Shown piece by piece: positions 3,001-17,444 of a stretch of DNA of 32,000 bases. Under the pieces are notes generated by a model, which saw nothing but the letters and a program-made list of their open reading frames with translations, was not told the DNA's origin and did no database searches. A program made the position numbers and the translations under genes. Location: contig NC_007517.1 of assembly GCF_000012925.1 (NCBI RefSeq), forward strand, positions 3,900,001 to 3,932,000, in the 5' to 3' direction. Position 1 is the stretch's first letter. Each line of letters opens with the position of its first letter. Source of the DNA: Geobacter metallireducens GS-15. GTDB taxonomy: Bacteria > Desulfobacterota > Desulfuromonadia > Geobacterales > Geobacteraceae.

Positions 3001-4395
3001 ATCGTGGACGAACCGGCAGAAATGGCTGACCCAACGTACCTCGTTCGCCTTGGTGACGATGCGAAATTCCAGGGGAGTTGCCTGGATTTCGGTACCCACA
3101 GTCTCCTTGTGCTCGATCCACAGGTCACGGTCATCGGGATGGATGATCCGGTCCATGAGCCCTGGGTCGGCATAGAATTCGGCGTCCGTGTACCCCGTGA
3201 TCTGGAAGCAGTGGGGAGAGACGTAGGCCATCGTGCCGTCGGAATTCCGCCAGACCGCCATGTCCGTGGAGAAATCGGCCACCACCTGGTAGAGCTCCTT
3301 GCTCCGCTTCAGCTCCTCCTCTTTTTTTTCCAGCCTAGCCACCATGGCGTTGAAGGTCTCGGCCAGGGTTCCGATCTCGTCCCGCGACGGAGCGGAGAAA
3401 CGCCTCCCTTTCGGCGACATGTCGCCGAGGTTGGCCACATGTCTGGTGAAGTGAAGGAGCGGGGCGGTCAGGTACGCCATGGTCAGCCGCACAACGAAGA
3501 TCGACAGAAGAATCGCCCCCACGAGTGCAGCAAGTAAGTACTTTTTCACAGCATGGACCGGGGCGTAGGCCTCATCCACGGGATAGTGGGCAGCGATGGT
3601 CCAACTGGCGTTCCTGAGCCTCTTGAAGGATGTGATCCCCCTGTTTCCACGGGACGTCACATTCTCCATGCTCCCCTCGAATCCCTGGAGTGCCCTCTCG
3701 AAGCCGATGTTCTTCCCGACGGGCACTGTCTCCAGTATCCGCGGACTGTCGGGATGGGTAATGAGTCGTCTGTCGGCGTTGAATGTATAGAGATACCCGG
3801 TCTTGCCGACCCTGGTCTTTTCTATCTTTCCCAGGAAATTGTCCTTCAGCAGGTCAAAGCTCCCGGCCAGGATACCGGCAAGCTTTCCATCGGTCCCGAA
3901 GAGCGGCACGGTGAACATGACGGCCGGATTCCGGTGCTGCCTGGTGGTGCAGTAAGGGATGGAAATGTGGGGGCGGCCGGTGGCAACCGTCTGGCGGAAG
4001 TATTCGCGGTAAGAATAGTCCTTTCCCAGGAGGTTCGGCTCATGGGGGGTCGCAGCCATGAGCGTTCCCTCCGGAGAGAAGAGGGAGAGGCCGTCGTCGA
4101 AGACCGAGAGGGTTTCCGCGCAGCCGTCGAGGTATCTCTGGGCCTTGAGTGGGTCTCCATATGCGTCCAGAGGCATCCGCTTCGCCGTCTCCCGGAGGAG
4201 GGCGCTGCTGGTCGCCAGCTCGTCGTCCACCTCGTCGGCCAGGGACGATACCAGCGTAAACTGCTGGGCACAAATCAACCGCTTGAACTCCCCTTCAAAA
4301 TACCCGTAGGAGAAGAATGCCAGAGAGGACATCAGCACGGCCACCAGGAGAAAGACCGTGATGCTCATCTTCGATTTCAGGCTCAAGGGTCGCAT
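64..4395 (-). CDS. Hybrid multi-sensor histidine kinase (TM, Cache-like periplasmic domain, TM, HAMP, multiple PAS, HisKA, HATPase, receiver, C-terminal coiled coil plus PAS-like domain)
   Basis: 1465-aa ORF; the likely start is MRPLSLKS at 4395 (the ORF maximum is 4461). Motifs seen: H-box [18 protein letters not shown]-box NLLVNAGHAI, G-boxes DTGCGIP and GTGLGLS, receiver ILCVDDE...ISDYRMPVMNG...KP, HAMP DEIGTLAETFNAMVARL, and two TM helices flanking a ~270-aa Cache-like region. Confidence 0.9.
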   Translation of the reverse strand: MRPLSLKSKMSITVFLLVAVLMSSLAFFSYGYFEGEFKRLICAQQFTLVSSLADEVDDELATSSALLRETAKRMPLDAYGDPLKAQRYLDGCAETLSVFDDGLSLFSPEGTLMAATPHEPNLLGKDYSYREYFRQTVATGRPHISIPYCTTRQHRNPAVMFTVPLFGTDGKLAGILAGSFDLLKDNFLGKIEKTRVGKTGYLYTFNADRRLITHPDSPRILETVPVGKNIGFERALQGFEGSMENVTSRGNRGITSFKRLRNASWTIAAHYPVDEAYAPVHAVKKYLLAALVGAILLSIFVVRLTMAYLTAPLLHFTRHVANLGDMSPKGRRFSAPSRDEIGTLAETFNAMVARLEKKEEELKRSKELYQVVADFSTDMAVWRNSDGTMAYVSPHCFQITGYTDAEFYADPGLMDRIIHPDDRDLWIEHKETVGTEIQATPLEFRIVTKANEVRWVSHFCRFVHDEAGELIGVRGSFSDISAKKMALDVVIAQKNFAENLISSATAPIFVLDSRNRILFWNKACEELTGYPAATMIGTDRQWQPFYCGRRPTLADVIIDCGEEATLSELYEKFSPSQLAKEGMQAEGWYLGLGGKNRYILFDAAPIRNAEGELVAAIETFHDITDRQIAEDSVVLLKDFYLTLFEEFPALIWRSGTDAKCNYFNKTWLQFTGRSLEEELGGGWAEGVHPEDLERCVSTYLRAFDSREPFSMEYRLRCHDGDYRWIVHTGRPFQEPDGAFAGYIGVCYDITDRRRAAEKLRESQRDLAQKHKQLSTLFMEVEMAKKEWEQTLDCIGDLVILTDNEGHIRRCNRAVVELAGLPYQDVLGREWRSIVLSPEMERIRFTQEGGELFHRLTERWFFCAIYPFRQKNESGMSGSVVTLHDTTELKKVGEALEKAYGELKEAQGQMLQREKMASIGQLAAGVAHEINNPIGFIMSNLGTLGKYLGRIREFIAAQDETIAELEGEAVSQRLAQAKKTLKIEYIMGDIDGLITESLDGAERVKKIVQDLKGFSRVDEAEVKVVDLRECLDSTINIVWNELKYKATLKKEYGDVPPLRCNPQQLNQVFMNLLVNAGHAIESQGEITVRTWREGEDAFIAISDTGCGIPEEIRARIFEPFFTTKEVGKGTGLGLSISYDIVKKHGGEITVESEQGRGTTFTVRSLSGRGTDMDEQVRILCVDDEMNVLRSLGRMFLDDNYDILTASSAAEGLEILERESPVQIVISDYRMPVMNGVDFLRKVCTQWPDTVRIVLSGYADTAAIVAAINEGQIYKFVPKPWTDDELRVTVINALEKYQLQKHNAKLLDELSRSNEELVLMNENLEAIVAERTEEVLFRNRALSAAQNILDALPVGVLGMDTEGTVVQCNRSAARLLGLDEYAVVGRGAAEALSPEICAFIDELAREKTSMCRLLAGVAGVRSLGVYLKEGEQEGIVLVFNGEEPL

Positions 4396-10769: not shown

Positions 10770-10845
<76 letters not shown>

Positions 10846-11189: not shown

Positions 11190-11232
11190 CGAATTGCACC
11201 ATTCACAAGACTTTAAGCTACGGAGGTCTCTC

Positions 11233-12918
11233 ATGAAACTGCGAGTTGTCGTGATCGGAGCCAACGCTGCGGGGGCAAAGGCCGCCTCCAAGGCAAAAAG
11301 GATGAACCCCCATGCGGAGGTTACTCTGATCGAGCGGGGCAATTTTATTTCTTACGGCGCCTGCGGTATTCCCTATTTCGTTTCGGATACCGTAGCCGAT
11401 GTAAAAGAGTTGATGAGCACCCCGGTCGGAGTGGTGCGAGATGCAGCCTTTTTCAACAAGGTGAAGGGAGTCCACGTTATCACCGGAACCGAGGTGGTCA
11501 GCCTCGACCGGCAGTCGAGGACGGTCCAGCTGTTCGAAAAGGAGAGCGCGAAAGCCTTCTCCCTTGAATACGACCGGCTGGTTCTGGCCACGGGGAGCTC
11601 GCCGTCCCTTCCACCGTTGAAGAACCGGGATCTTGGCAACATCCTGACGGTCAAGGCCATTGAGGATGCGGAACTGCTGAAAGAGCGGGCCGTGACGGGA
11701 AAGAGAGCCTGTATCGTCGGCGGCGGTCTGATCGGCCTGGAAACGGCAGAGGCCTTGAGGCAGAAGGGGTTGGAGGTCACGATCGTCGAGATGCGCGACC
11801 AGCTTCTGCCGGGAATACTGGACCCGGAGATGGCGAGTCTGGTTGAAAGGCATATCCGTCAGAACGGTGTCGAGGTTGAGACTTCTTGCCGGGTGGCCGG
11901 TTTTGACGGCACCGGAGTAGTGAATAAAGTTCTGACCGAACGGGGAGAGATCCCGGCTGACGTGGTGGTACTGGCACCAGGGGTGACGCCGAACGTGAAG
12001 CTGGCGAAGGAGGCCGGATTGGAGATCGGCCCCACTGGCGCCATCGCCGTCGACTCCCGCATGGGGACCAGCGACCCGGCAATCTACGCCTGCGGTGACT
12101 GCTGCGAAACCACCCACTTGGTTACCGGGAAAAAGGTTCATGTCCCCCTCGGCAGCACCGCCAACAAGCAGGGGAGGGTCGCCGGGATAAACGCATCCGG
12201 GGGGGAGGCAACCTTTGCCGGAATCCTCGGCACCAGCATCCTCAGGGTCTTCAGTGTCAACGCCGGGAAGACCGGCCTCACTGAATCCGAGGCGAGGGCA
12301 CAGGGGTATGACGTCGAAACCGTCCTCTCGCCGGCCCCCGACAAAGCGCACTTTTTCCCCGGCGCGAAACCGATCGCCCTAAAGCTCGTGGCAGACCGGG
12401 CTACCGGGAGGATTCTCGGGCTTCAGGCTGTCGGCGAGGGGGCCGTGGACAAGCGGGTGGACGCCGCAGCCGCGGCCATTACGTTCGGCGCCACCGCCGA
12501 CCAGCTTTCGCACCTGGATCTGGCCTACGCACCCCCCTACTCAGCCGCCATGGACAACCTCATCGTGGCCGCGGATATCCTGAAGAACAAACTGGCCGGC
12601 CACGCCAGGGGTATCTCCCCCCGAAAGGTGAGGCAGATGCTGGATGATGGCGACGACTTCATCCTCCTCGACGTCCGCTCTCCCGCGGAACATGCAGAGG
12701 TCGGCATCGAGGGGGCCACGCTTATCCCCCTGGGGGCATTGAGGGAAAAGCTGGAGAGTCTCCCCAAGGACAAAGAGATCGTCACCTTCTGCAAAATCAG
12801 CCTCAGAGGCTACGAGGCCCAGAAGATCCTCGATGCTGCCGGCTTCAGGGATGTCAAGTTCCTGGATGGCGGCATAATGACGTGGCCCTATGAACTTCGA
12901 CGCGGCGGAGGAGCCTGA
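11233..12918 (+). CDS. FAD-dependent pyridine nucleotide-disulfide oxidoreductase (CoA-disulfide reductase / NADH oxidase class) fused to a C-terminal rhodanese domain
   Basis: Start MKLRVVVIGANAAGAKAA (FAD GxGxxG) with GGAGG 6 nt upstream. Redox Cys in SYGACGIPYF. Second dinucleotide fold ACIVGGGLIGLE. The C-terminal rhodanese has the active-site loop FCKISLRG. Confidence 0.88.
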   Translation: MKLRVVVIGANAAGAKAASKAKRMNPHAEVTLIERGNFISYGACGIPYFVSDTVADVKELMSTPVGVVRDAAFFNKVKGVHVITGTEVVSLDRQSRTVQLFEKESAKAFSLEYDRLVLATGSSPSLPPLKNRDLGNILTVKAIEDAELLKERAVTGKRACIVGGGLIGLETAEALRQKGLEVTIVEMRDQLLPGILDPEMASLVERHIRQNGVEVETSCRVAGFDGTGVVNKVLTERGEIPADVVVLAPGVTPNVKLAKEAGLEIGPTGAIAVDSRMGTSDPAIYACGDCCETTHLVTGKKVHVPLGSTANKQGRVAGINASGGEATFAGILGTSILRVFSVNAGKTGLTESEARAQGYDVETVLSPAPDKAHFFPGAKPIALKLVADRATGRILGLQAVGEGAVDKRVDAAAAAITFGATADQLSHLDLAYAPPYSAAMDNLIVAADILKNKLAGHARGISPRKVRQMLDDGDDFILLDVRSPAEHAEVGIEGATLIPLGALREKLESLPKDKEIVTFCKISLRGYEAQKILDAAGFRDVKFLDGGIMTWPYELRRGGGA

Positions 12919-13010: not shown

Positions 13011-13038
13011 TTGACAAAGCCTCATTGTGATGTACTAT
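13011..13038 (+). promoter_or_regulatory. Candidate sigma-70 promoter driving the riboswitch leader
   Basis: TTGACA (13011-13016), a 16-nt spacer, TACTAT (13033-13038). It lies about 25 nt upstream of the first aptamer. Confidence 0.45.
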
Positions 13039-13060
13039 TGCCAAAAATTTTGCTTGAGTA

Positions 13061-13145
13061 GATAGACGACAATACTTAACCATTCGCGAGAATGGGGCGG
13101 AAAGCCTATAGGGTCTCATGGAGACAGCCGGGTTGCCGAAATATC
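13061..13145 (+). promoter_or_regulatory. GEMM-I-type cyclic-dinucleotide riboswitch aptamer, copy 1
   Basis: ...AATACTTAACCATTCGCGAGAATGGGGCGGAAAGCCTATAGGGTCTCATGGAGACAGCCGGGTTGCCGAAATATC aligns position for position with the Vc2 GEMM-I core (AAACC-AUUC-GNRA-GAGUGGG-ACGCAAAGCC...AGCGGGGUUACCGA). It has a GNRA loop (GCGA), the AAAGCC junction and GGGTTGCCGA. A occupies the G20-equivalent position (13074), and a C21/G46 pair covaries with the Vc2 G21/C46 pair. Confidence 0.8.
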
Positions 13146-13171
13146 ACACGATATTTGGTCCCGGCTTTTTT
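13127..13171 (+). terminator. Intrinsic terminator / expression platform of riboswitch 1
   Basis: GCCGGG (13127-13132) pairs with CCCGGC (13160-13165), with an inner helix CCGAAATATC/GATATTTGG, followed by T6. The 5' arm is shared with the 3' strand of the aptamer, so the two folds are mutually exclusive. Confidence 0.75.
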
Positions 13172-13268
13172 ATTGTGCAAACCATGACTGGAGGCCGAGC
13201 CGACAAGGAGTGCGTCTCTGACGTGGCGGTGCCTGTGGGCGCCGGAAAACTGCAACAAAATAGTTGGT

Positions 13269-13353
13269 GGTAGACGATAATACTAAACCATTCGCGAGAA
13301 TGGGGCGGAAAGCCTATAGGGTCTCCCTGAGACAGCCGGGTTGCCGAAATATC
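13269..13353 (+). promoter_or_regulatory. GEMM-I-type cyclic-dinucleotide riboswitch aptamer, copy 2
   Basis: Same architecture exactly 208 nt downstream of copy 1. The P2 hairpin loop differs (GTCTC-CCT-GAGAC against GTCTC-ATG-GAGAC) while the stem is kept. A again occupies the G20-equivalent position (13282). Confidence 0.8.
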
Positions 13354-13379
13354 ACGCGATATTTGGTCCCGGCTTTTTT
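13335..13379 (+). terminator. Intrinsic terminator / expression platform of riboswitch 2
   Basis: GCCGGG (13335-13340) pairs with CCCGGC (13368-13373), followed by T6 (13374-13379). Layout is the same as copy 1. Confidence 0.75.
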
Positions 13380-13431
13380 GTGTCTTGACGCGGAACTTAC
13401 CCATTCTCGAGAAAGGTACCGAACTCAATCC

Positions 13432-14748
13432 ATGTACCGAATCGCTGACCTGCCCCTCTCTACCGCCTGTTTTCGCCTGATCGCTCTAGGGGTATGTATC
13501 CTATCCCTTCAAGGATGCGCTGTACTCAGGGGTGCCCAGGAGCAATCATCGCTTGCGCCAGGCCATCTTGCCGCGGAGATCGAACGAAATGACTTTCCCG
13601 TTGCCAATGGCGACGACGTCATTGGCCGGCTTGCCGTCCTCAGACTTGAACAGGGGGATACGCTCCCGGATATTGCGAGACATTTCGGTCTGGGGATCAC
13701 GGCACTCAGCGCCGCCAATCCGGGCATGGATGTCTGGGCGCCCGAGGCCGGAAAACCGGTCATCCTGCCCCTGAGCTTTGTCCTGCCGGACACCCCGAGA
13801 CGAGGGATTGTGGTCAACGTCGCCACAATGAGGCTCTTTCAGTACAAGGGCGATGGCGCCTCCCTGGCGGTATCCACCTACCCCGTCGGCGTCGGCACCA
13901 AGGAGCGCCCCACCCCCACCGGCCCAACGCGGGTGTATCGCAAGGCGGCCCGGCCGACCTGGCATGTGCCTGCTTCAATTGCCGAGGACCATCGAAAGAA
14001 GGGGGATCCGCTCCCCCCGGAAGTTCCGCCGGGGCCGGAGAATCCCCTGGGGGAATACGCTCTCTACCTGAGCAAACCGGGGTATCTGATCCATGGCACG
14101 AACAAGCCGGCCAGCATCGGGCTTAAGGCAACCAATGGCTGTATGAGGCTCTATCCGGAAAACATCGAGGTGCTCTATAACGACACGCCGGTCAACACCC
14201 CGGTGGCCATTGTCAACCAACCCTACCTCATCGGTCAACGGGACGGGGTGCTTTACCTGGAAGCCCATACCCCGCTGGAAGACGCAGGCACTCTCGAACT
14301 GACGAAGGTGTATGAAAAGTTGAGAGCCATTGAAAAGAAAACAGGCCGTGCGCTTGACTGGACAAAAATCAGAAAAGTTCAGGCCGAGGCCCGGGGGATT
14401 CCGGTTCCCATCCTCGAACTGCGCCAGGGAAGTGAAAAAGGGATTCCGCAAACCATGGAAGTCGGGCACCCCGACACACTGCACGGCAGACCGGAAATAC
14501 CGGACCTGAAACCGGATGCCTGGTATGTTCTGGCTGCCGATGTGCGTAACGAGCTTGAGGCCCGGAGGATTGCCGCCATCATCAACCACCAGGGCCCTCC
14601 GATACCGGCACGGGTCTTGGCAAAGAACAACGCCTACCGTGTCATCGCCGGCCCGTTCGCTGATGGCAGTAGGGCCAGGGATGCGGCCAAACGCCTGAAG
14701 ATCGATTTGGAAATCGACGGCATATTGATTGATCCTGCTGGGAAGTAG
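13432..14748 (+). CDS. L,D-transpeptidase lipoprotein of the ErfK/YbiS/YcfS/YnhG type, with LysM-like N-domain, YkuD catalytic domain and C-terminal SPOR domain
   Basis: Start MYRIADLPLSTACFRLIALGVCILSLQGC (lipobox). LysM-like segment LRLEQGDTLPDIARHFGLGITALSAANPG. YkuD core LPDTPRRGIVVNVATMRLFQY...PENPLGEYALYL...YLIHGTNKPASIGLKATNGCMRL (catalytic His and Cys). SPOR-like tail WYVLAADVRNELEARRIAAII...YRVIAGPFADGSRARDAAKRLK. Confidence 0.88.
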   Translation: MYRIADLPLSTACFRLIALGVCILSLQGCAVLRGAQEQSSLAPGHLAAEIERNDFPVANGDDVIGRLAVLRLEQGDTLPDIARHFGLGITALSAANPGMDVWAPEAGKPVILPLSFVLPDTPRRGIVVNVATMRLFQYKGDGASLAVSTYPVGVGTKERPTPTGPTRVYRKAARPTWHVPASIAEDHRKKGDPLPPEVPPGPENPLGEYALYLSKPGYLIHGTNKPASIGLKATNGCMRLYPENIEVLYNDTPVNTPVAIVNQPYLIGQRDGVLYLEAHTPLEDAGTLELTKVYEKLRAIEKKTGRALDWTKIRKVQAEARGIPVPILELRQGSEKGIPQTMEVGHPDTLHGRPEIPDLKPDAWYVLAADVRNELEARRIAAIINHQGPPIPARVLAKNNAYRVIAGPFADGSRARDAAKRLKIDLEIDGILIDPAGK

Positions 14749-14799
14749 ACAGCCCCTCTTCCTGGCTGGGCAACCTAGAGAGAAAGGAGGTGATTAGCG

Positions 14800-15102
14800 A
14801 TGAAAGGGATTCTCTTGCTGATCGCAATGCTGCTCGTTCTCCCTGTCACCATGATTGGTTGTGCAACCTCCGGTGACCTGGAGAGAGTGCAGGCGGATCA
14901 AAGAATGCTTGATGCGAAAGTCGAGCAGGCAGTGCAGGATGCACAAGCAGCCAAGGCCTCAGCCGATGCGGCCAAAGCAAAGGCAGATAATGCCACAGCC
15001 CGCGCCGATAGTGCTATAAAGGCGGCTGAGGAAAGGGAACGGATCGCCGATGAAAAGGCGAAAAAGGCTGACGCTACTTTCCAGAAATCCATGAGGAAGT
15101 AA
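14800..15102 (+). CDS. Braun-lipoprotein-like (Lpp-like) alanine-zipper lipoprotein ending in Arg-Lys
   Basis: Strong RBS AAGGAGGTGA 8 nt upstream. Signal plus lipobox MKGILLLIAMLLVLPVTMIGC. The mature part is an Ala/Lys/Asp-rich coiled coil (LDAKVEQAVQDAQAAKASADAAKAKADNATARAD) that resembles E. coli Lpp ([34 protein letters not shown]). The C-terminus is ...KSMRK, compared with Lpp ...KYRK. Confidence 0.8.
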   Translation: MKGILLLIAMLLVLPVTMIGCATSGDLERVQADQRMLDAKVEQAVQDAQAAKASADAAKAKADNATARADSAIKAAEERERIADEKAKKADATFQKSMRK

Positions 15103-15148
15103 GGCACATTCAAGGGGGCCGTCGCGTTACCTGCGACGCCCGGACAAG

Positions 15149-15178
15149 AAATGGCAGGGTCCACGCGCCCTGCCATTT
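15149..15178 (+). terminator. Strong hairpin after the lpp-like gene (possible partial terminator or attenuator)
   Basis: AAATGGCAGGG (15149-15159) pairs with CCCTGCCATTT (15168-15178), an 11-bp perfect stem. The U tract is only short and interrupted (TTTCCTTATCC). Confidence 0.45.
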
Positions 15179-15276
15179 CCTTATCCGGCAGGTGGGTCCG
15201 GCCGGACATTTTGAACATACGGACATCAGGCTCCCGGAACGGGATATTCCTGATGATTCCAGCAAGGGGTGAGGAG

Positions 15277-16278
15277 ATGAGGGGACCGGAAATCTTTCGC
15301 CGTGGACCGTCTGCGGAATCAGGACGGTCTTTGGCCGATACGGCAACAAAACAAAGCCGGCCGGGCAAACGCCTTAGCTTTTTTCGTATCGGCATCCTGG
15401 TAACACCGATGCTCATGGCGGGATGCGGTCACCTTCAGTCCAAGCCGACCTTTGAAGAAGCGAATGACTTGTTTAATCAGGGAAGCTACCAGGCCTCGCT
15501 GAGCAAATACGAGCAGATTGTCGACCAGCAACCTGCGGCGGGCGACAGGGCTCTCTTCGAGATGGGTATCGTTTATTCGTACCCGAAGAACGAGCGCAAA
15601 GATTATCAGAAATCCCTGGAGTGCTTTCAGCGGGTCATAAAGGATTATCCCGGGAGCCACTACCGGCAGAACAGTCAGACGATGGCATCGTATATCAATA
15701 CTGTCCCGGTCAAGGACGCGACGATTGCCACGCAGCAAACGAGGATCGAGGCCCTCCAGCGCGAGCTCACGGGCAAAGAGGATGAGATCGCTGCCCTGCG
15801 GGGAAAGATTGAAGCGCTTGAAAAAAATGTGTTTGCCTACGCCATCCGGAAGCCATCGCTCGACAAGATCCTGATAGAAAAACAGGCACGACGCATGATG
15901 CTGATCTCAAAGGGGGCGGTGCTCAAAACCTACAGGATCGCCCTGGGGGGAGACCCCATCGGCCCGAAAGAACGGCAAGGCGACAACAAAACCCCGGAAG
16001 GAGCCTACACCATCGATGCCAGAAACAGGGATAGCCGTTATCACCGGGCTCTCCATATCTCCTATCCCAACGAGAGGGACAGGAAGCGCGCCCGGGAACT
16101 CGGAGTCTCCCCGGGCGGAAACATCATGATCCACGGCATCAAGAATGGTTTCTCGTGGGTTGGAGATGCTCACGCAGGGGTGGACTGGACAAAGGGGTGC
16201 ATTGCCGTAACGGACGAGGAAATAGAGGAAATTGACACGTTGGCGCCCAATGGCACCATTGTCGAGATCAGGCCATAG
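15277..16278 (+). CDS. YkuD-domain protein of the YafK/LdtF(DpaA)-like type with N-terminal TPR-like and coiled-coil regions; probable lipoprotein
   Basis: Catalytic domain ...GPKERQGDNKTPEGAYTIDARNRDSRYHRALHISYPNERDRKRARELGVSPGGNIMIHG...WTKGCIAV. It resembles E. coli YafK as I recall it (GPKQRQGDFKSPEGFY...MIHG...GC). TPR-like segment FEEANDLFNQGSYQASLSKYEQIV...FQRVIKDYPGSHY. Lipobox-like LMAGC. The start is uncertain: ATG at 15277 or 15253, or a TTG further downstream that gives a normal signal peptide KRLSFFRIGILVTPMLMAGC. Confidence 0.75.
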   Translation: MRGPEIFRRGPSAESGRSLADTATKQSRPGKRLSFFRIGILVTPMLMAGCGHLQSKPTFEEANDLFNQGSYQASLSKYEQIVDQQPAAGDRALFEMGIVYSYPKNERKDYQKSLECFQRVIKDYPGSHYRQNSQTMASYINTVPVKDATIATQQTRIEALQRELTGKEDEIAALRGKIEALEKNVFAYAIRKPSLDKILIEKQARRMMLISKGAVLKTYRIALGGDPIGPKERQGDNKTPEGAYTIDARNRDSRYHRALHISYPNERDRKRARELGVSPGGNIMIHGIKNGFSWVGDAHAGVDWTKGCIAVTDEEIEEIDTLAPNGTIVEIRP

Positions 16279-16307: not shown

Positions 16308-17444
16308 CTAGAAATGCTCCCCCTTGGCCTTTTCCGTAACCTTTCTGCTGACGGTGCGACGATCCCAGACACTCACCTCCCAGTTGTCCGGCTGGTTTTC
16401 CGCGGCGATCCAGGGGGGAACTTTGACCCGAAAGTACGCTGCCAGGGCGTGGACGTAGGGCTCATACATCCAGCGCAGCTCGGTCAGCTTCCGGTCAACG
16501 GTATCCCTTTCACGGAGCTTCAGTCCCCTTTCCGCCAGAAGGGCGCGGAGATCCTCCAGCTTTTCGGGCGGAAGTCGTGGTGACGCGGGCTCCTGCGGCC
16601 TGGTCCTGAAGACCAGGGAGAGATCGACCACGGCGTGGCGGGCCATGGCGAAGGTGAGTTCCGCCTGGCGCTCGCAGGCCCCGTCCACGCCAGCCATGAG
16701 GAGGGCGCAGGTGTCCAGGATCGCCGTCAGGGCCCCCAGCCACGACTGGTTTTCGTGCTGGGAGCGGAAATAGGCAAGGACCGGGTAGGAGAGGTGCCCC
16801 TCCAGAAACTCCGACGACCAGTTCTCCCACTCGTGGAGGAGTTGCCGGAGCGCGTCCATCCCCCGTTCGTGGCCGTGGCGGCGAAGCATTTCGGAGGCGG
16901 TAGGAGGTGAACCGGCCCGGGCATCCAGGAGCGAGATGCTCACCTCGCGGCTGGCGAACGACTGGTTGAGGGCCGGCAGATAGCCGATCACGAGGGCGAG
17001 AAAGCCGAACCCCATCCCCGATTCGAGCACCACGAGAAAGCGCGCCGCCGTGCTCCGGGGGATGGCATCCCCCAGCCCGAGGGTGAAGAACGTGGTGCCG
17101 CTCAGGTAGAGGTCGACAAGGAGCCCGCTGCTCCCGTCATGGGTTACGATGGCCGAGCCAAGCCCCCAGTGGAGGAGGGCAAAGCCGACGATCAACCCGA
17201 AGGCCCAGATGCTGAGCAGGAGGATGAGCGACAGGGGGCCGAAAAAGCTCAGCCAGGTTTCCCGCCGCCGCGGCGGGACACAGGCGTTGACCATCGTTAC
17301 CCAGGGGAGCCAGGTGCGCCGGTAGAAAAAGCGGGTCATGCGGAACCGGCGGGTCACCCGGCGGGGGAGGACAATGGTCTCAAACCCCTCCCAGAGCACC
17401 ACCACGATCAGGGCAATGCCGCACATGACGGCAACGATAGTCAC
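16308..17444 (-). CDS. Potassium-channel-family (Ion_trans_2-like) membrane protein with a C-terminal domain of unknown function
   Basis: Pore-like signature [11 protein letters not shown] flanked by hydrophobic helices. GTG start at 17444 with GGAGGGG upstream, only 12 nt after the iorB-like stop. Confidence 0.7.

Follow-up and report, generated by a model that had tools for sequence, protein, structure and literature searches.

Genes 1, 2 and 3 of this study are Gmet_3485-3487 of Geobacter metallireducens GS-15, three co-directional lipoprotein genes that lie behind a sigma-70-like promoter and two tandem GEMM-I riboswitch aptamers, each with its own terminator. They are located in a stretch of 32,000 nucleotides (nt) of contig NC_007517.1 (positions 3,900,001 to 3,932,000 of the forward strand; hereafter the window, to which coordinates refer), and all elements of the locus read on the plus strand. 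Gene 1 (Gmet_3485, ABB33690.2; 13432..14748) encodes a lipoprotein L,D-transpeptidase of 438 amino acids (aa; assigned with Pfam, NCBIfam, BLASTP and the PDB), gene 2 (ABB33691.1; 14800..15102) an Lpp/OprI-type lipoprotein of 100 aa (NF040598, PF11839), and gene 3 (Gmet_3487, ABB33692.2; 15277..16278) a 333-aa lipoprotein composed of a TPR region, a long helix and a YkuD domain (Pfam, NCBIfam, AlphaFold). The window proteins are identical to these three GS-15 entries and are also found unchanged in strain RCH3. A GGAGG ribosome-binding site lies in the gap of 51 nt that separates genes 1 and 2, where no hairpin reaches significance (z -0.13). A preliminary description of this stretch had listed tandem riboswitches and, directly downstream of them, three co-directional genes, with no terminator between the first two, and each of these elements is present where it had been placed. 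We are highly confident that Gmet_3485-3487 form a single riboswitch-controlled operon.

The leader of this operon opens with the promoter-like element (13011..13038; TTGACA, a 16-nt spacer and TACTAT), which reaches 10/12 in a consensus scan and is a pattern match only; its -35 hexamer begins at 13011, the coordinate from which the preliminary description had started. It is followed by GEMM-I aptamer 1 (13064..13140; Rfam RF01051, 41.9 bits, E 4e-5), which is the riboswitch 'Gm3485' of the cyclic GMP-AMP (cGAMP) class, and by GEMM-I aptamer 2 (13272..13348; RF01051, 45.4 bits, E 6e-6), both scoring above the Rfam gathering score of 35. In both aptamers, an A replaces the unpaired G that precedes P1 in the Rfam consensus, which we take to be the G20A signature of cGAMP selectivity. 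Each aptamer overlaps an intrinsic terminator of the form GCCGGG...CCCGGC-U6, with folding energies of -24 to -25 kcal/mol and z-scores of about -4 (13127..13171, -24.1 kcal/mol, z -4.09; 13335..13379, -24.8 kcal/mol, z -3.8; both running into U6). Since the 5′ arm of the terminator, GCCGGG, is part of the 3′ strand of the aptamer, the two structures constitute a competing expression platform and are predicted to act as an ON switch. This geometry agrees with RNA sequencing (RNA-seq) of G. sulfurreducens, in which loss of GacA raises termination at these riboswitches. Two studies from 2015 classed 'Gm3485' as cGAMP-selective (as tabulated in PMC12285248 Table S2); the window aptamers are candidate members of the cGAMP-selective GEMM-Ib subclass.

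How widely is the arrangement conserved? A scan of one genome per species returned 579 relatives of gene 3, and the comparisons reported here cover the loci of the best 80 of these 579, G. sulfurreducens not being among them. In every locus with enough flanking sequence (~72/80), genes 1, 2 and 3 are adjacent and on one strand, an outcome that, as far as the three genes are concerned, answers the conservation check proposed in the preliminary description in its favour. Four loci show the order 3-1-2, and genes 1 and 2 stay adjacent there. Loci with the trio span several lineages at 48-89% protein identity, with or without riboswitches, namely the Geobacteraceae and metagenome-assembled genomes (MAGs) labelled as Nitrospirae/Thermodesulfovibrionales, Deferrimicrobiaceae, Smithella and Dissulfurispiraceae. 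The MAGs carry the labels given by those who submitted them, and several are plainly mis-binned. Implausible labels are attached to three short MAG contigs (L020, a Thermoplasmata archaeon; L082, Peptostreptococcales; L077, Acidobacteriota); as the module is specific to outer-membrane bacteria, these are probably binning errors.

Gene 1 begins with a lipobox (LQGC, residues 26-29, 13507-13518) that is kept as L-x-G/A-C in all orthologues. Downstream of it, Pfam delineates a LysM domain (13651-13770; a weak match), a YkuD domain (13801-14211; 2e-21, 77 bits) with the catalytic motif TNGCMR at 14131-14148, and a SPOR domain (14512-14724; 1e-10). The catalytic motif takes the form (S/T)NGC[IML]R in 70/70 orthologues. 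When compared by BLASTP with the Escherichia coli paralogues, gene 1 reaches 147-162 bits and 35-40% identity with LdtA, LdtB, LdtE and LdtC, 28 bits with LdtD and 19 bits with DpaA, and it matches the PDB entries 9tyw (1.7e-68) and 4lzh (1.7e-44). In NCBIfam, the top models for gene 1 are LdtE, PRK10190 and PRK10260, with scores (173, 169 and 159 bits) that stay below the cut-offs of 480, 517 and 583, respectively, at which it would count as the equivalog of one particular E. coli enzyme. By its sequence, gene 1 classifies as an L,D-transpeptidase of the LdtA/B/C/E (ErfK/YbiS/YcfS/YnhG) lineage with the (S/T)xGChR motif, which is the family the preliminary description had named.

Gene 2 scores 76.5 bits against the Lpp/OprI alanine-zipper model NF040598 (cut-off 43) and 49.1 bits against PF11839 (cut-off 23.1, E 7e-13). 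Among models specific to Lpp, PF04728 gives no match and PRK15396 reaches 25.8 bits against a cut-off of 108, and the identity to E. coli Lpp is 28%. Judged by these scores, gene 2 is a lipoprotein of the Lpp/OprI alanine-zipper family and not Braun lipoprotein proper, so that its earlier designation as Lpp-like was apt. From the lipobox (MIGC, 14851-14862) onward, the mature protein comprises 80 residues, roughly 11 nm if fully helical, and it terminates in SMRK (15088-15099), similar to the ...SRK of OprI. Orthologues end in FxKSM[KR]K in 74/76 loci, and 75 of the 76 complete orthologues have Lys as their last residue, the one exception being an apparently disrupted copy. The mature lengths in the 76 loci are 73, 80, 87, 94 or 101 residues (for example in L006, L003, L018, L022 and L054, respectively) and thus differ by whole heptads, apart from two cases of 90. 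Such seven-residue steps are expected if the coiled coil has to stay in register when the distance from outer membrane to cell wall changes. As to the neighbouring proteins, gene 1 has a variable C-terminus (among others G, R or K) and the last residue of gene 3 is Pro; neither has a fixed Lys, making conservation of the terminal Lys specific to the lipoprotein. On the same grounds, gene 1 and gene 3 were rejected as Lys-anchored substrates in their own right. No second Lpp/OprI paralogue of G. metallireducens was found among the best 120 homologues, in a search that was not exhaustive. Taken at face value, these sequence patterns incline us to think that gene 2 may well be covalently linked to peptidoglycan by gene 1.

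For gene 3, the 333-aa GenBank start (15277) is preferred over the 289-aa RefSeq start (15409), because orthologues conserve both the extension at the N-terminus and the lipobox (L46, G49, C50; MAGC at 15415-15426); the RefSeq form would begin MLMAGC, without a signal peptide. Behind the lipobox comes the TPR region (15445-15651, residues 57-125), which is drawn from the structural model and from TPR/YfiO-like matches that are weak and all below the Pfam cut-offs. AlphaFold predicts a single long helix for the following segment (15664-15846, residues 130-190, ~60 residues), and the remainder is occupied by the YafK-like YkuD domain (15847-16275), with GPKERQGD at 15961-15984 and TKGCIA at 16189-16206. 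The linker length of gene 3 correlates with the mature length of gene 2 (Spearman 0.85), a correlation that is suggestive only, because it stems mostly from two clades (80/67 and 87-101/79 residues), within which the linker is near-constant, and is largely phylogenetic.

Which reaction might the YkuD domain of gene 3 catalyse? Among the E. coli paralogues, DpaA comes closest to it (35% identity over 143 residues, 68 bits), with LdtA-E at 26 bits or less, and its best sequence match in the PDB is likewise DpaA (8ikr, 2.6e-10). When the discriminating residues of the DpaA crystal-structure paper were mapped onto gene 3, K83, Q86, Y109, M133, H135, C143 and A145 were found to be kept, with K231, Y255 and A310 as the equivalents of K83, Y109 and A145. 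DpaA's C-terminal tail is absent, and gene 3 ends 25 residues past the catalytic Cys. At this Cys, the motif reads TKGCIA in 77/79 orthologues and TQGCIA in the other two. The position Cys+2 is therefore occupied by Ala throughout (79/79), whereas gene 1 has Arg (70/70), a catalytic split between the two enzymes that is invariant and runs in the direction demanded by the attach/detach hypothesis. An R-versus-A polymorphism at precisely this position has been proposed to separate transpeptidases from DpaA-type hydrolases (PMC10434034). The catalytic domain belongs to a subfamily of at least 349 clusters at E 1e-30 or better, most of them single-domain proteins of 165-230 residues. Across 116 diverse members sampled, the K and the A of DpaA are conserved (Ala at Cys+2 in at least 90%), and DpaA is the best NCBIfam model for all of them. 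The subfamily is uncharacterised (P0121-P0270) and marked by the motif DWTxGCIA and a 21-residue His-Cys spacing; its members are mostly stand-alone secreted proteins, and one of them (P0163) is fused to a PAP2/undecaprenyl-diphosphatase-like membrane domain. Together, these features make it probable that gene 3 is a hydrolase-type YkuD enzyme of some kind; for the narrower assignment, that it is specifically the detaching amidase, we would put the chances a little below even.

The riboswitches are distributed differently from the genes that they precede. In a census of the 67 loci in which gene 1 is complete and preceded by more than 450 nt, for which we used our own GEMM-I model, two aptamers precede gene 1 in 26 loci, three in one, a single one in 14 and none in 26; three of the 14 single-aptamer matches are weak (36-50 bits) and unconfirmed by Rfam. 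The locus with three riboswitches before gene 1 is L014 (L014:3618-4127). Rfam confirms tandem pairs in Geobacter-type loci and detects no GEMM-I in eight module loci that are labelled as other lineages or are of uncertain affiliation. This distribution points to the three-gene module as the older part and to the riboswitches as a regulatory overlay on it, seen for the most part in Geobacter-type loci. The elements behind the weak matches upstream of gene 1 in three loci (L055:3914-4010, L057:867-909 and L063:3953-4048) are GEMM-I-like, with a 3′ half near-identical to the aptamer and a longer first hairpin, and give no Rfam match at E 0.01 or better. In some loci, our own model has additional matches (42-106 bits) at a distance of a few kb from the module, at L019:8443-8529 (-), L071:5918-6003 (+), L080:10544-10628 (-) and L060:8402-8489 (+). 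Riboswitch-less loci (for example L018 at about 3690-3783, L024, L046 and L054) have in common a conserved segment of ~90 nt before gene 1. It contains GGCATTACTTTTGCAT or GGATTGATTCTTGCG, which resemble a sigma-54 -24/-12 element (GG-N10-GC); the segment suggests that the same module may be regulated differently in these loci.

A second RNA element is located behind gene 2. The conserved 3′ region of this gene (15103..15215) includes a 13-bp hairpin at 15148-15179, about 50 nt past the stop codon, with the weak U-tail CUUAUCC. About 100 nt past the stop are conserved in sequence across distant lineages (e.g. L018:5453-5572 and L045:8967-9086), and within them a covarying stem of 13-14 bp, with the arms GGAAGUGGCAGGG...CCCUGCCACUUCC, has a matching hairpin in 68/76 loci. 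In an alignment of 30 sequences, 94.5% of cells pair and 10 of the 14 pairs show compensatory changes, values that none of 500 shuffles reaches. The region has no match in Rfam, and for the first ~50 nt after the stop codon RNAalifold returns no consensus fold, although the sequence is conserved. As the hairpin follows gene 2 even where the permuted gene order leaves gene 3 elsewhere, it is a 3′ element of the lipoprotein gene rather than a leader of gene 3. At the corresponding place in G. sulfurreducens, a 76-nt 'predicted RNA' has been annotated, the coverage of which (242) exceeds that of the flanking genes (175 and 128) (Hallberg et al. 2019, PMC6456294). The simplest reading is that the hairpin is probably a leaky terminator or mRNA stabiliser, favouring the structural protein over the enzyme. 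Alternatively, the region could possibly give rise to a 3′-derived small RNA.

The operon and its regulation have been described before. Hallberg et al. (2019, eLife, PMC6456294) reported G. sulfurreducens GSU0183-GSU0181 as a cGAMP-riboswitch 'operon of uncharacterized lipoprotein transpeptidases', with the order GSUR3002, GSUR3001, GSU0183 (YkuD, SPOR), GSU0182 (lipoprotein), 'predicted RNA' and GSU0181 (YkuD, TPR). Gene order and annotated architectures are the same as in the window, and so are the tandem GEMM-Ib riboswitches; expression is cGAMP-dependent. Deletion of gacA, which encodes the cGAMP synthase, changes GSU0183, GSU0182, the intergenic RNA and GSU0181 by log2 -4.14, -4.64, -4.75 and -4.42, an about 16-25-fold drop of all three genes, and in an esnD deletion the same transcripts go up by log2 +0.6 to +0.86 (PMC6456294). 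In G. metallireducens engineered for high cyclic di-GMP (c-di-GMP), Gmet3485-3487 are up together (log2 1.15, 1.82 and 1.66; 2025 table). The preliminary description was thus mistaken in regarding the arrangement as undescribed, as operon and riboswitches appear both in the 2019 paper and in the 2025 G. metallireducens table. Likewise, the RNA-seq check that it had proposed was already published for G. sulfurreducens, and it supports co-regulation (log2 -4.1 to -4.7 in the gacA deletion). Its proposal of cyclic-dinucleotide control stands as far as this cGAMP co-regulation goes, but the module is not bound to such control: GEMM-I is missing from about 40% of the loci. New in the present analysis are the synteny of the trio, the invariant R/A motif split, the heptad length steps with a fixed Lys, and the conserved hairpin behind gene 2.

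What could such an operon be for? Our best overall explanation, to which we assign about an even chance, is a cGAMP-switched operon that encodes a tether between outer membrane and peptidoglycan together with an attaching and a detaching enzyme. The sequence features, the synteny and, through published RNA-seq, the cGAMP-dependent co-expression are established; the placement in the membrane, the covalent link and the specificity of either enzyme are what we infer here. Transcription would start at the sigma-70-like promoter and pass through two tandem cGAMP-class GEMM-I riboswitches, where bound cGAMP would prevent termination and two switches in series would sharpen the response. The coiled coil of gene 2, with its invariant C-terminal Lys, would be lipid-anchored in the outer membrane. 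With LysM and SPOR bound to peptidoglycan, gene 1 would link this Lys, through its epsilon-amine, to meso-diaminopimelic acid (meso-DAP) in a stem peptide, the reaction by which LdtA-C attach Lpp and LdtPae2 attaches OprI. In gene 3, the TPR region together with the helix of ~60 residues might keep the hydrolase-type YkuD domain roughly level with the peptidoglycan, where it would cleave the Lys-DAP amide, so that the tether turns over instead of accumulating. The hairpin behind gene 2, in turn, would probably set a higher ratio of lipoprotein to enzyme.

Several observations weigh against this explanation, and those on gene 3 bear on its role as the detaching enzyme. The top NCBIfam model of gene 3, LdtF_DpaA_YafK (NF040599), is matched with 50 bits, below the equivalog cut-off of 365. 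K130 and Y131 of DpaA are replaced by G281 and N282, and a Y131A variant of DpaA retains only 4% activity. Moreover, 21 residues separate the catalytic His and Cys, as compared with 7 in DpaA. The earlier classification as YafK/DpaA-like holds at the level of the family; gene 3 is no equivalog of DpaA. Structure is no clearer guide. A full-length AlphaFold model (mean pLDDT, the predicted local distance difference test, of 68) had poor catalytic loops, and the fold search made with it was undiscriminating and was discarded; the catalytic-domain model was rebuilt from the 116-sequence alignment (pLDDT 96.8). With the latter, the top three matches are Bd1075 (7e-9), Pgp2 (1.8e-8) and Csd6 (2.1e-8; template-modelling (TM) score 0.73), and these three, B. 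subtilis YkuD and DpaA fall within a four-fold range of E-values and TM scores of 0.68-0.73 (DpaA 8ikr: TM 0.72, root-mean-square deviation 2.7, 32% identity). With the top five so close, the structure does not choose between an amidase and a carboxypeptidase. An L,D-carboxypeptidase of the Csd6/Pgp2/Bd1075/ElsL type, trimming tetrapeptide stems to tripeptides near the outer membrane, would be in line with these top matches, with the absence of K130 and Y131, with the different His-Cys segment, and with the ElsL model being matched by 12/116 subfamily members. Such an enzyme would limit the donor substrate of gene 1 and so would still antagonise tethering, leaving existing links unbroken. We nonetheless consider it unlikely, since DpaA is the best match by sequence (32-35% identity versus 22-25% for the carboxypeptidases) and since the Trp of the carboxypeptidase D-Ala pocket (Trp158 in Csd6) corresponds to Met284 in gene 3, as in DpaA (correspondence from PMC10653827). 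Gene 3 has neither the aromatic D-Ala pocket (Tyr133/Trp158 in Csd6) nor the C-terminal NTF2-like domain of the Csd6/Pgp2/Bd1075 type, and its tight linkage to the Lpp/OprI gene (~72/80) finds a simpler explanation if gene 3 acts on the lipoprotein. That gene 3 is a second transpeptidase, attaching or 3-3 cross-linking, an alternative raised by the preliminary description itself, strikes us as very improbable. It does retain both catalytic residues of the YkuD fold, His and Cys, and B. subtilis YkuD, a transpeptidase, is one of the five top structural matches, but Ala takes the place of Arg at Cys+2 in all orthologues and in at least 90% of the 116 subfamily members, DpaA is the best model for every sampled member, scores against E. 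coli LdtA-E do not exceed 26 bits, and mycobacterial transpeptidases match the model about 100 times worse than hydrolases do.

The role of gene 1 can be questioned as well. Rather than anchoring gene 2, it might be a 3-3 cross-linker sent by its SPOR domain to septal or denuded peptidoglycan, with the lipoprotein attached non-covalently or otherwise and the envelope stiffened in general. The SPOR domain would fit such a septal role, and SPOR domains are not known from the E. coli enzymes that anchor Lpp, which counts in favour of a cross-linker. Gene 1 is, besides, equally similar to LdtE (149 bits) and to LdtA/B/C (147-162 bits), and its best NCBIfam model is LdtE. Nor can Ldt function be read from lineage, Ldts that anchor lipoproteins and those that form 3-3 cross-links being inseparable in this respect (PMC10434034). 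In E. coli K-12, lpp adjoins ldtE in convergent orientation (L088:5422-6726), and as LdtE is a 3-3 cross-linking rather than an Lpp-anchoring enzyme, adjacency by itself is no proof of anchoring. Against this stands the invariant terminal Lys within FxKSM[KR]K of gene 2, the acceptor feature of Lpp and OprI, for which another explanation is difficult to find, given how variable the neighbouring proteins are at their C-termini; furthermore, the adjacency of genes 1 and 2 survives the permuted gene order. We therefore regard a purely cross-linking gene 1 as quite unlikely. The idea that the three genes are neighbours by chance, with unrelated roles, is effectively refuted by the ~72/80 synteny, permuted orders included, and by the joint change in expression in two species. 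Two further caveats concern the literature. GSU0183-GSU0181 are almost certainly orthologous to Gmet_3485-3487, an equivalence matched by annotation and order and not by sequence. Our literature search retrieved no paper in which peptidoglycan-bound lipoproteins are connected with Geobacter or an attach/detach reading is proposed, and no report that any of the three proteins is enzymatically active or linked to peptidoglycan.

Closest to the proposed tethering operon are two systems in which the same roles have been assigned. In E. coli, Lpp, LdtA/B/C and DpaA (LdtF/YafK) correspond to the three roles proposed here, and Lpp is a C-terminal-Lys lipoprotein like gene 2. The E. coli attaching enzymes carry SxGChR and are of the same lineage as gene 1 (35-40% identity), and DpaA, an SxGChA YkuD enzyme, is the best paralogue of gene 3 (35% identity). 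There is also precedent in E. coli for a dynamic balance of bound and free Lpp. In contrast to the window, where the genes form one operon and all products are lipoproteins, the E. coli genes are scattered, and the enzymes, single-domain or LysM proteins, are soluble. Gene 1 adds a SPOR domain to this scheme, gene 3 a TPR region and a long helix, and expression in the window is riboswitch-gated. Moreover, E. coli Lpp belongs to PF04728 and has 58 mature residues, as compared with the 80 of gene 2 in the OprI/alanine-zipper family PF11839. In Pseudomonas aeruginosa, OprI is of the same family as gene 2 and is anchored via its terminal Lys by LdtPae2, an enzyme of gene 1's (ErfK/YbiS) lineage; LdtPae3, a YafK-like SXGChA enzyme, has been proposed to release OprI, and OprI anchoring rises in biofilm (PMC10434034). 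This precedent makes the functional triad a known kind of system. Unlike in the window, the P. aeruginosa genes lie apart from one another, and the study describes no riboswitch for them (PMC10434034); LdtPae3 is close to YafK, whereas gene 3 falls into a separate subfamily with a 15-residue insertion. The L,D-carboxypeptidases Csd6, Pgp2 and Bd1075, finally, are the best structural matches to gene 3 (TM 0.69-0.73) and feature an open hydrolase-type active site and a conserved L1 Lys; gene 3 departs from them by Met in place of the D-Ala-pocket Trp, by the missing NTF2-like domain and by an identity of 22-25%.

The surroundings of the operon appear unrelated to the module. Upstream of it lie a tRNA-Asn(GTT) (10770-10845) and a pyridine-nucleotide-disulfide oxidoreductase with a rhodanese domain (11194-12918). 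Downstream, on the opposite strand, follow an Ion_trans_2 channel-like gene (16308-17444, -) and then a molybdopterin oxidoreductase cluster.

Overall, the observation with which the preliminary description began is confirmed and its interpretation is partly supported: the reading as an operon-encoded form of the Lpp/OprI-Ldt-DpaA tether system has good grounds and gains strength from the comparative evidence, and the biochemical roles, that of gene 3 especially, are put forward as predictions. A broader scenario, which we offer tentatively and think rather doubtful as a whole, would see the trio as a self-contained, horizontally shared 'tether cassette', consisting of a heptad-tuned link (73 to 101 residues) and two membrane-anchored enzymes, the detaching one on a helical stalk of tether length. 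In Geobacter, where the cassette would be under tandem cGAMP riboswitches, contact-dependent signalling might re-tether or re-space the envelope during extracellular electron transfer.

What would this mean for outer-membrane bacteria at large? An OprI-family lipoprotein with an invariant Lys, accompanied by a transpeptidase-type and a hydrolase-type YkuD protein, occurs across Geobacterales and other anaerobic lineages. A survey with the Pfam LPP model placed Lpp in four gammaproteobacterial orders only, and because of the model used it would miss the OprI-type family of gene 2. If gene 2 is peptidoglycan-linked, the covalent tether, which current opinion restricts to a few gammaproteobacterial orders, would be far more widespread than thought. 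How the balance between bound and free forms of Lpp-type tethers is set is still little understood. With enzyme, substrate and presumed antagonist in one unit, a known inducer, and existing mutants in which the unit is off (gacA) or up (esnD), Geobacter would provide a compact system in which to study regulated tethering, and the operon could connect envelope mechanics to cGAMP-controlled metal-oxide respiration.

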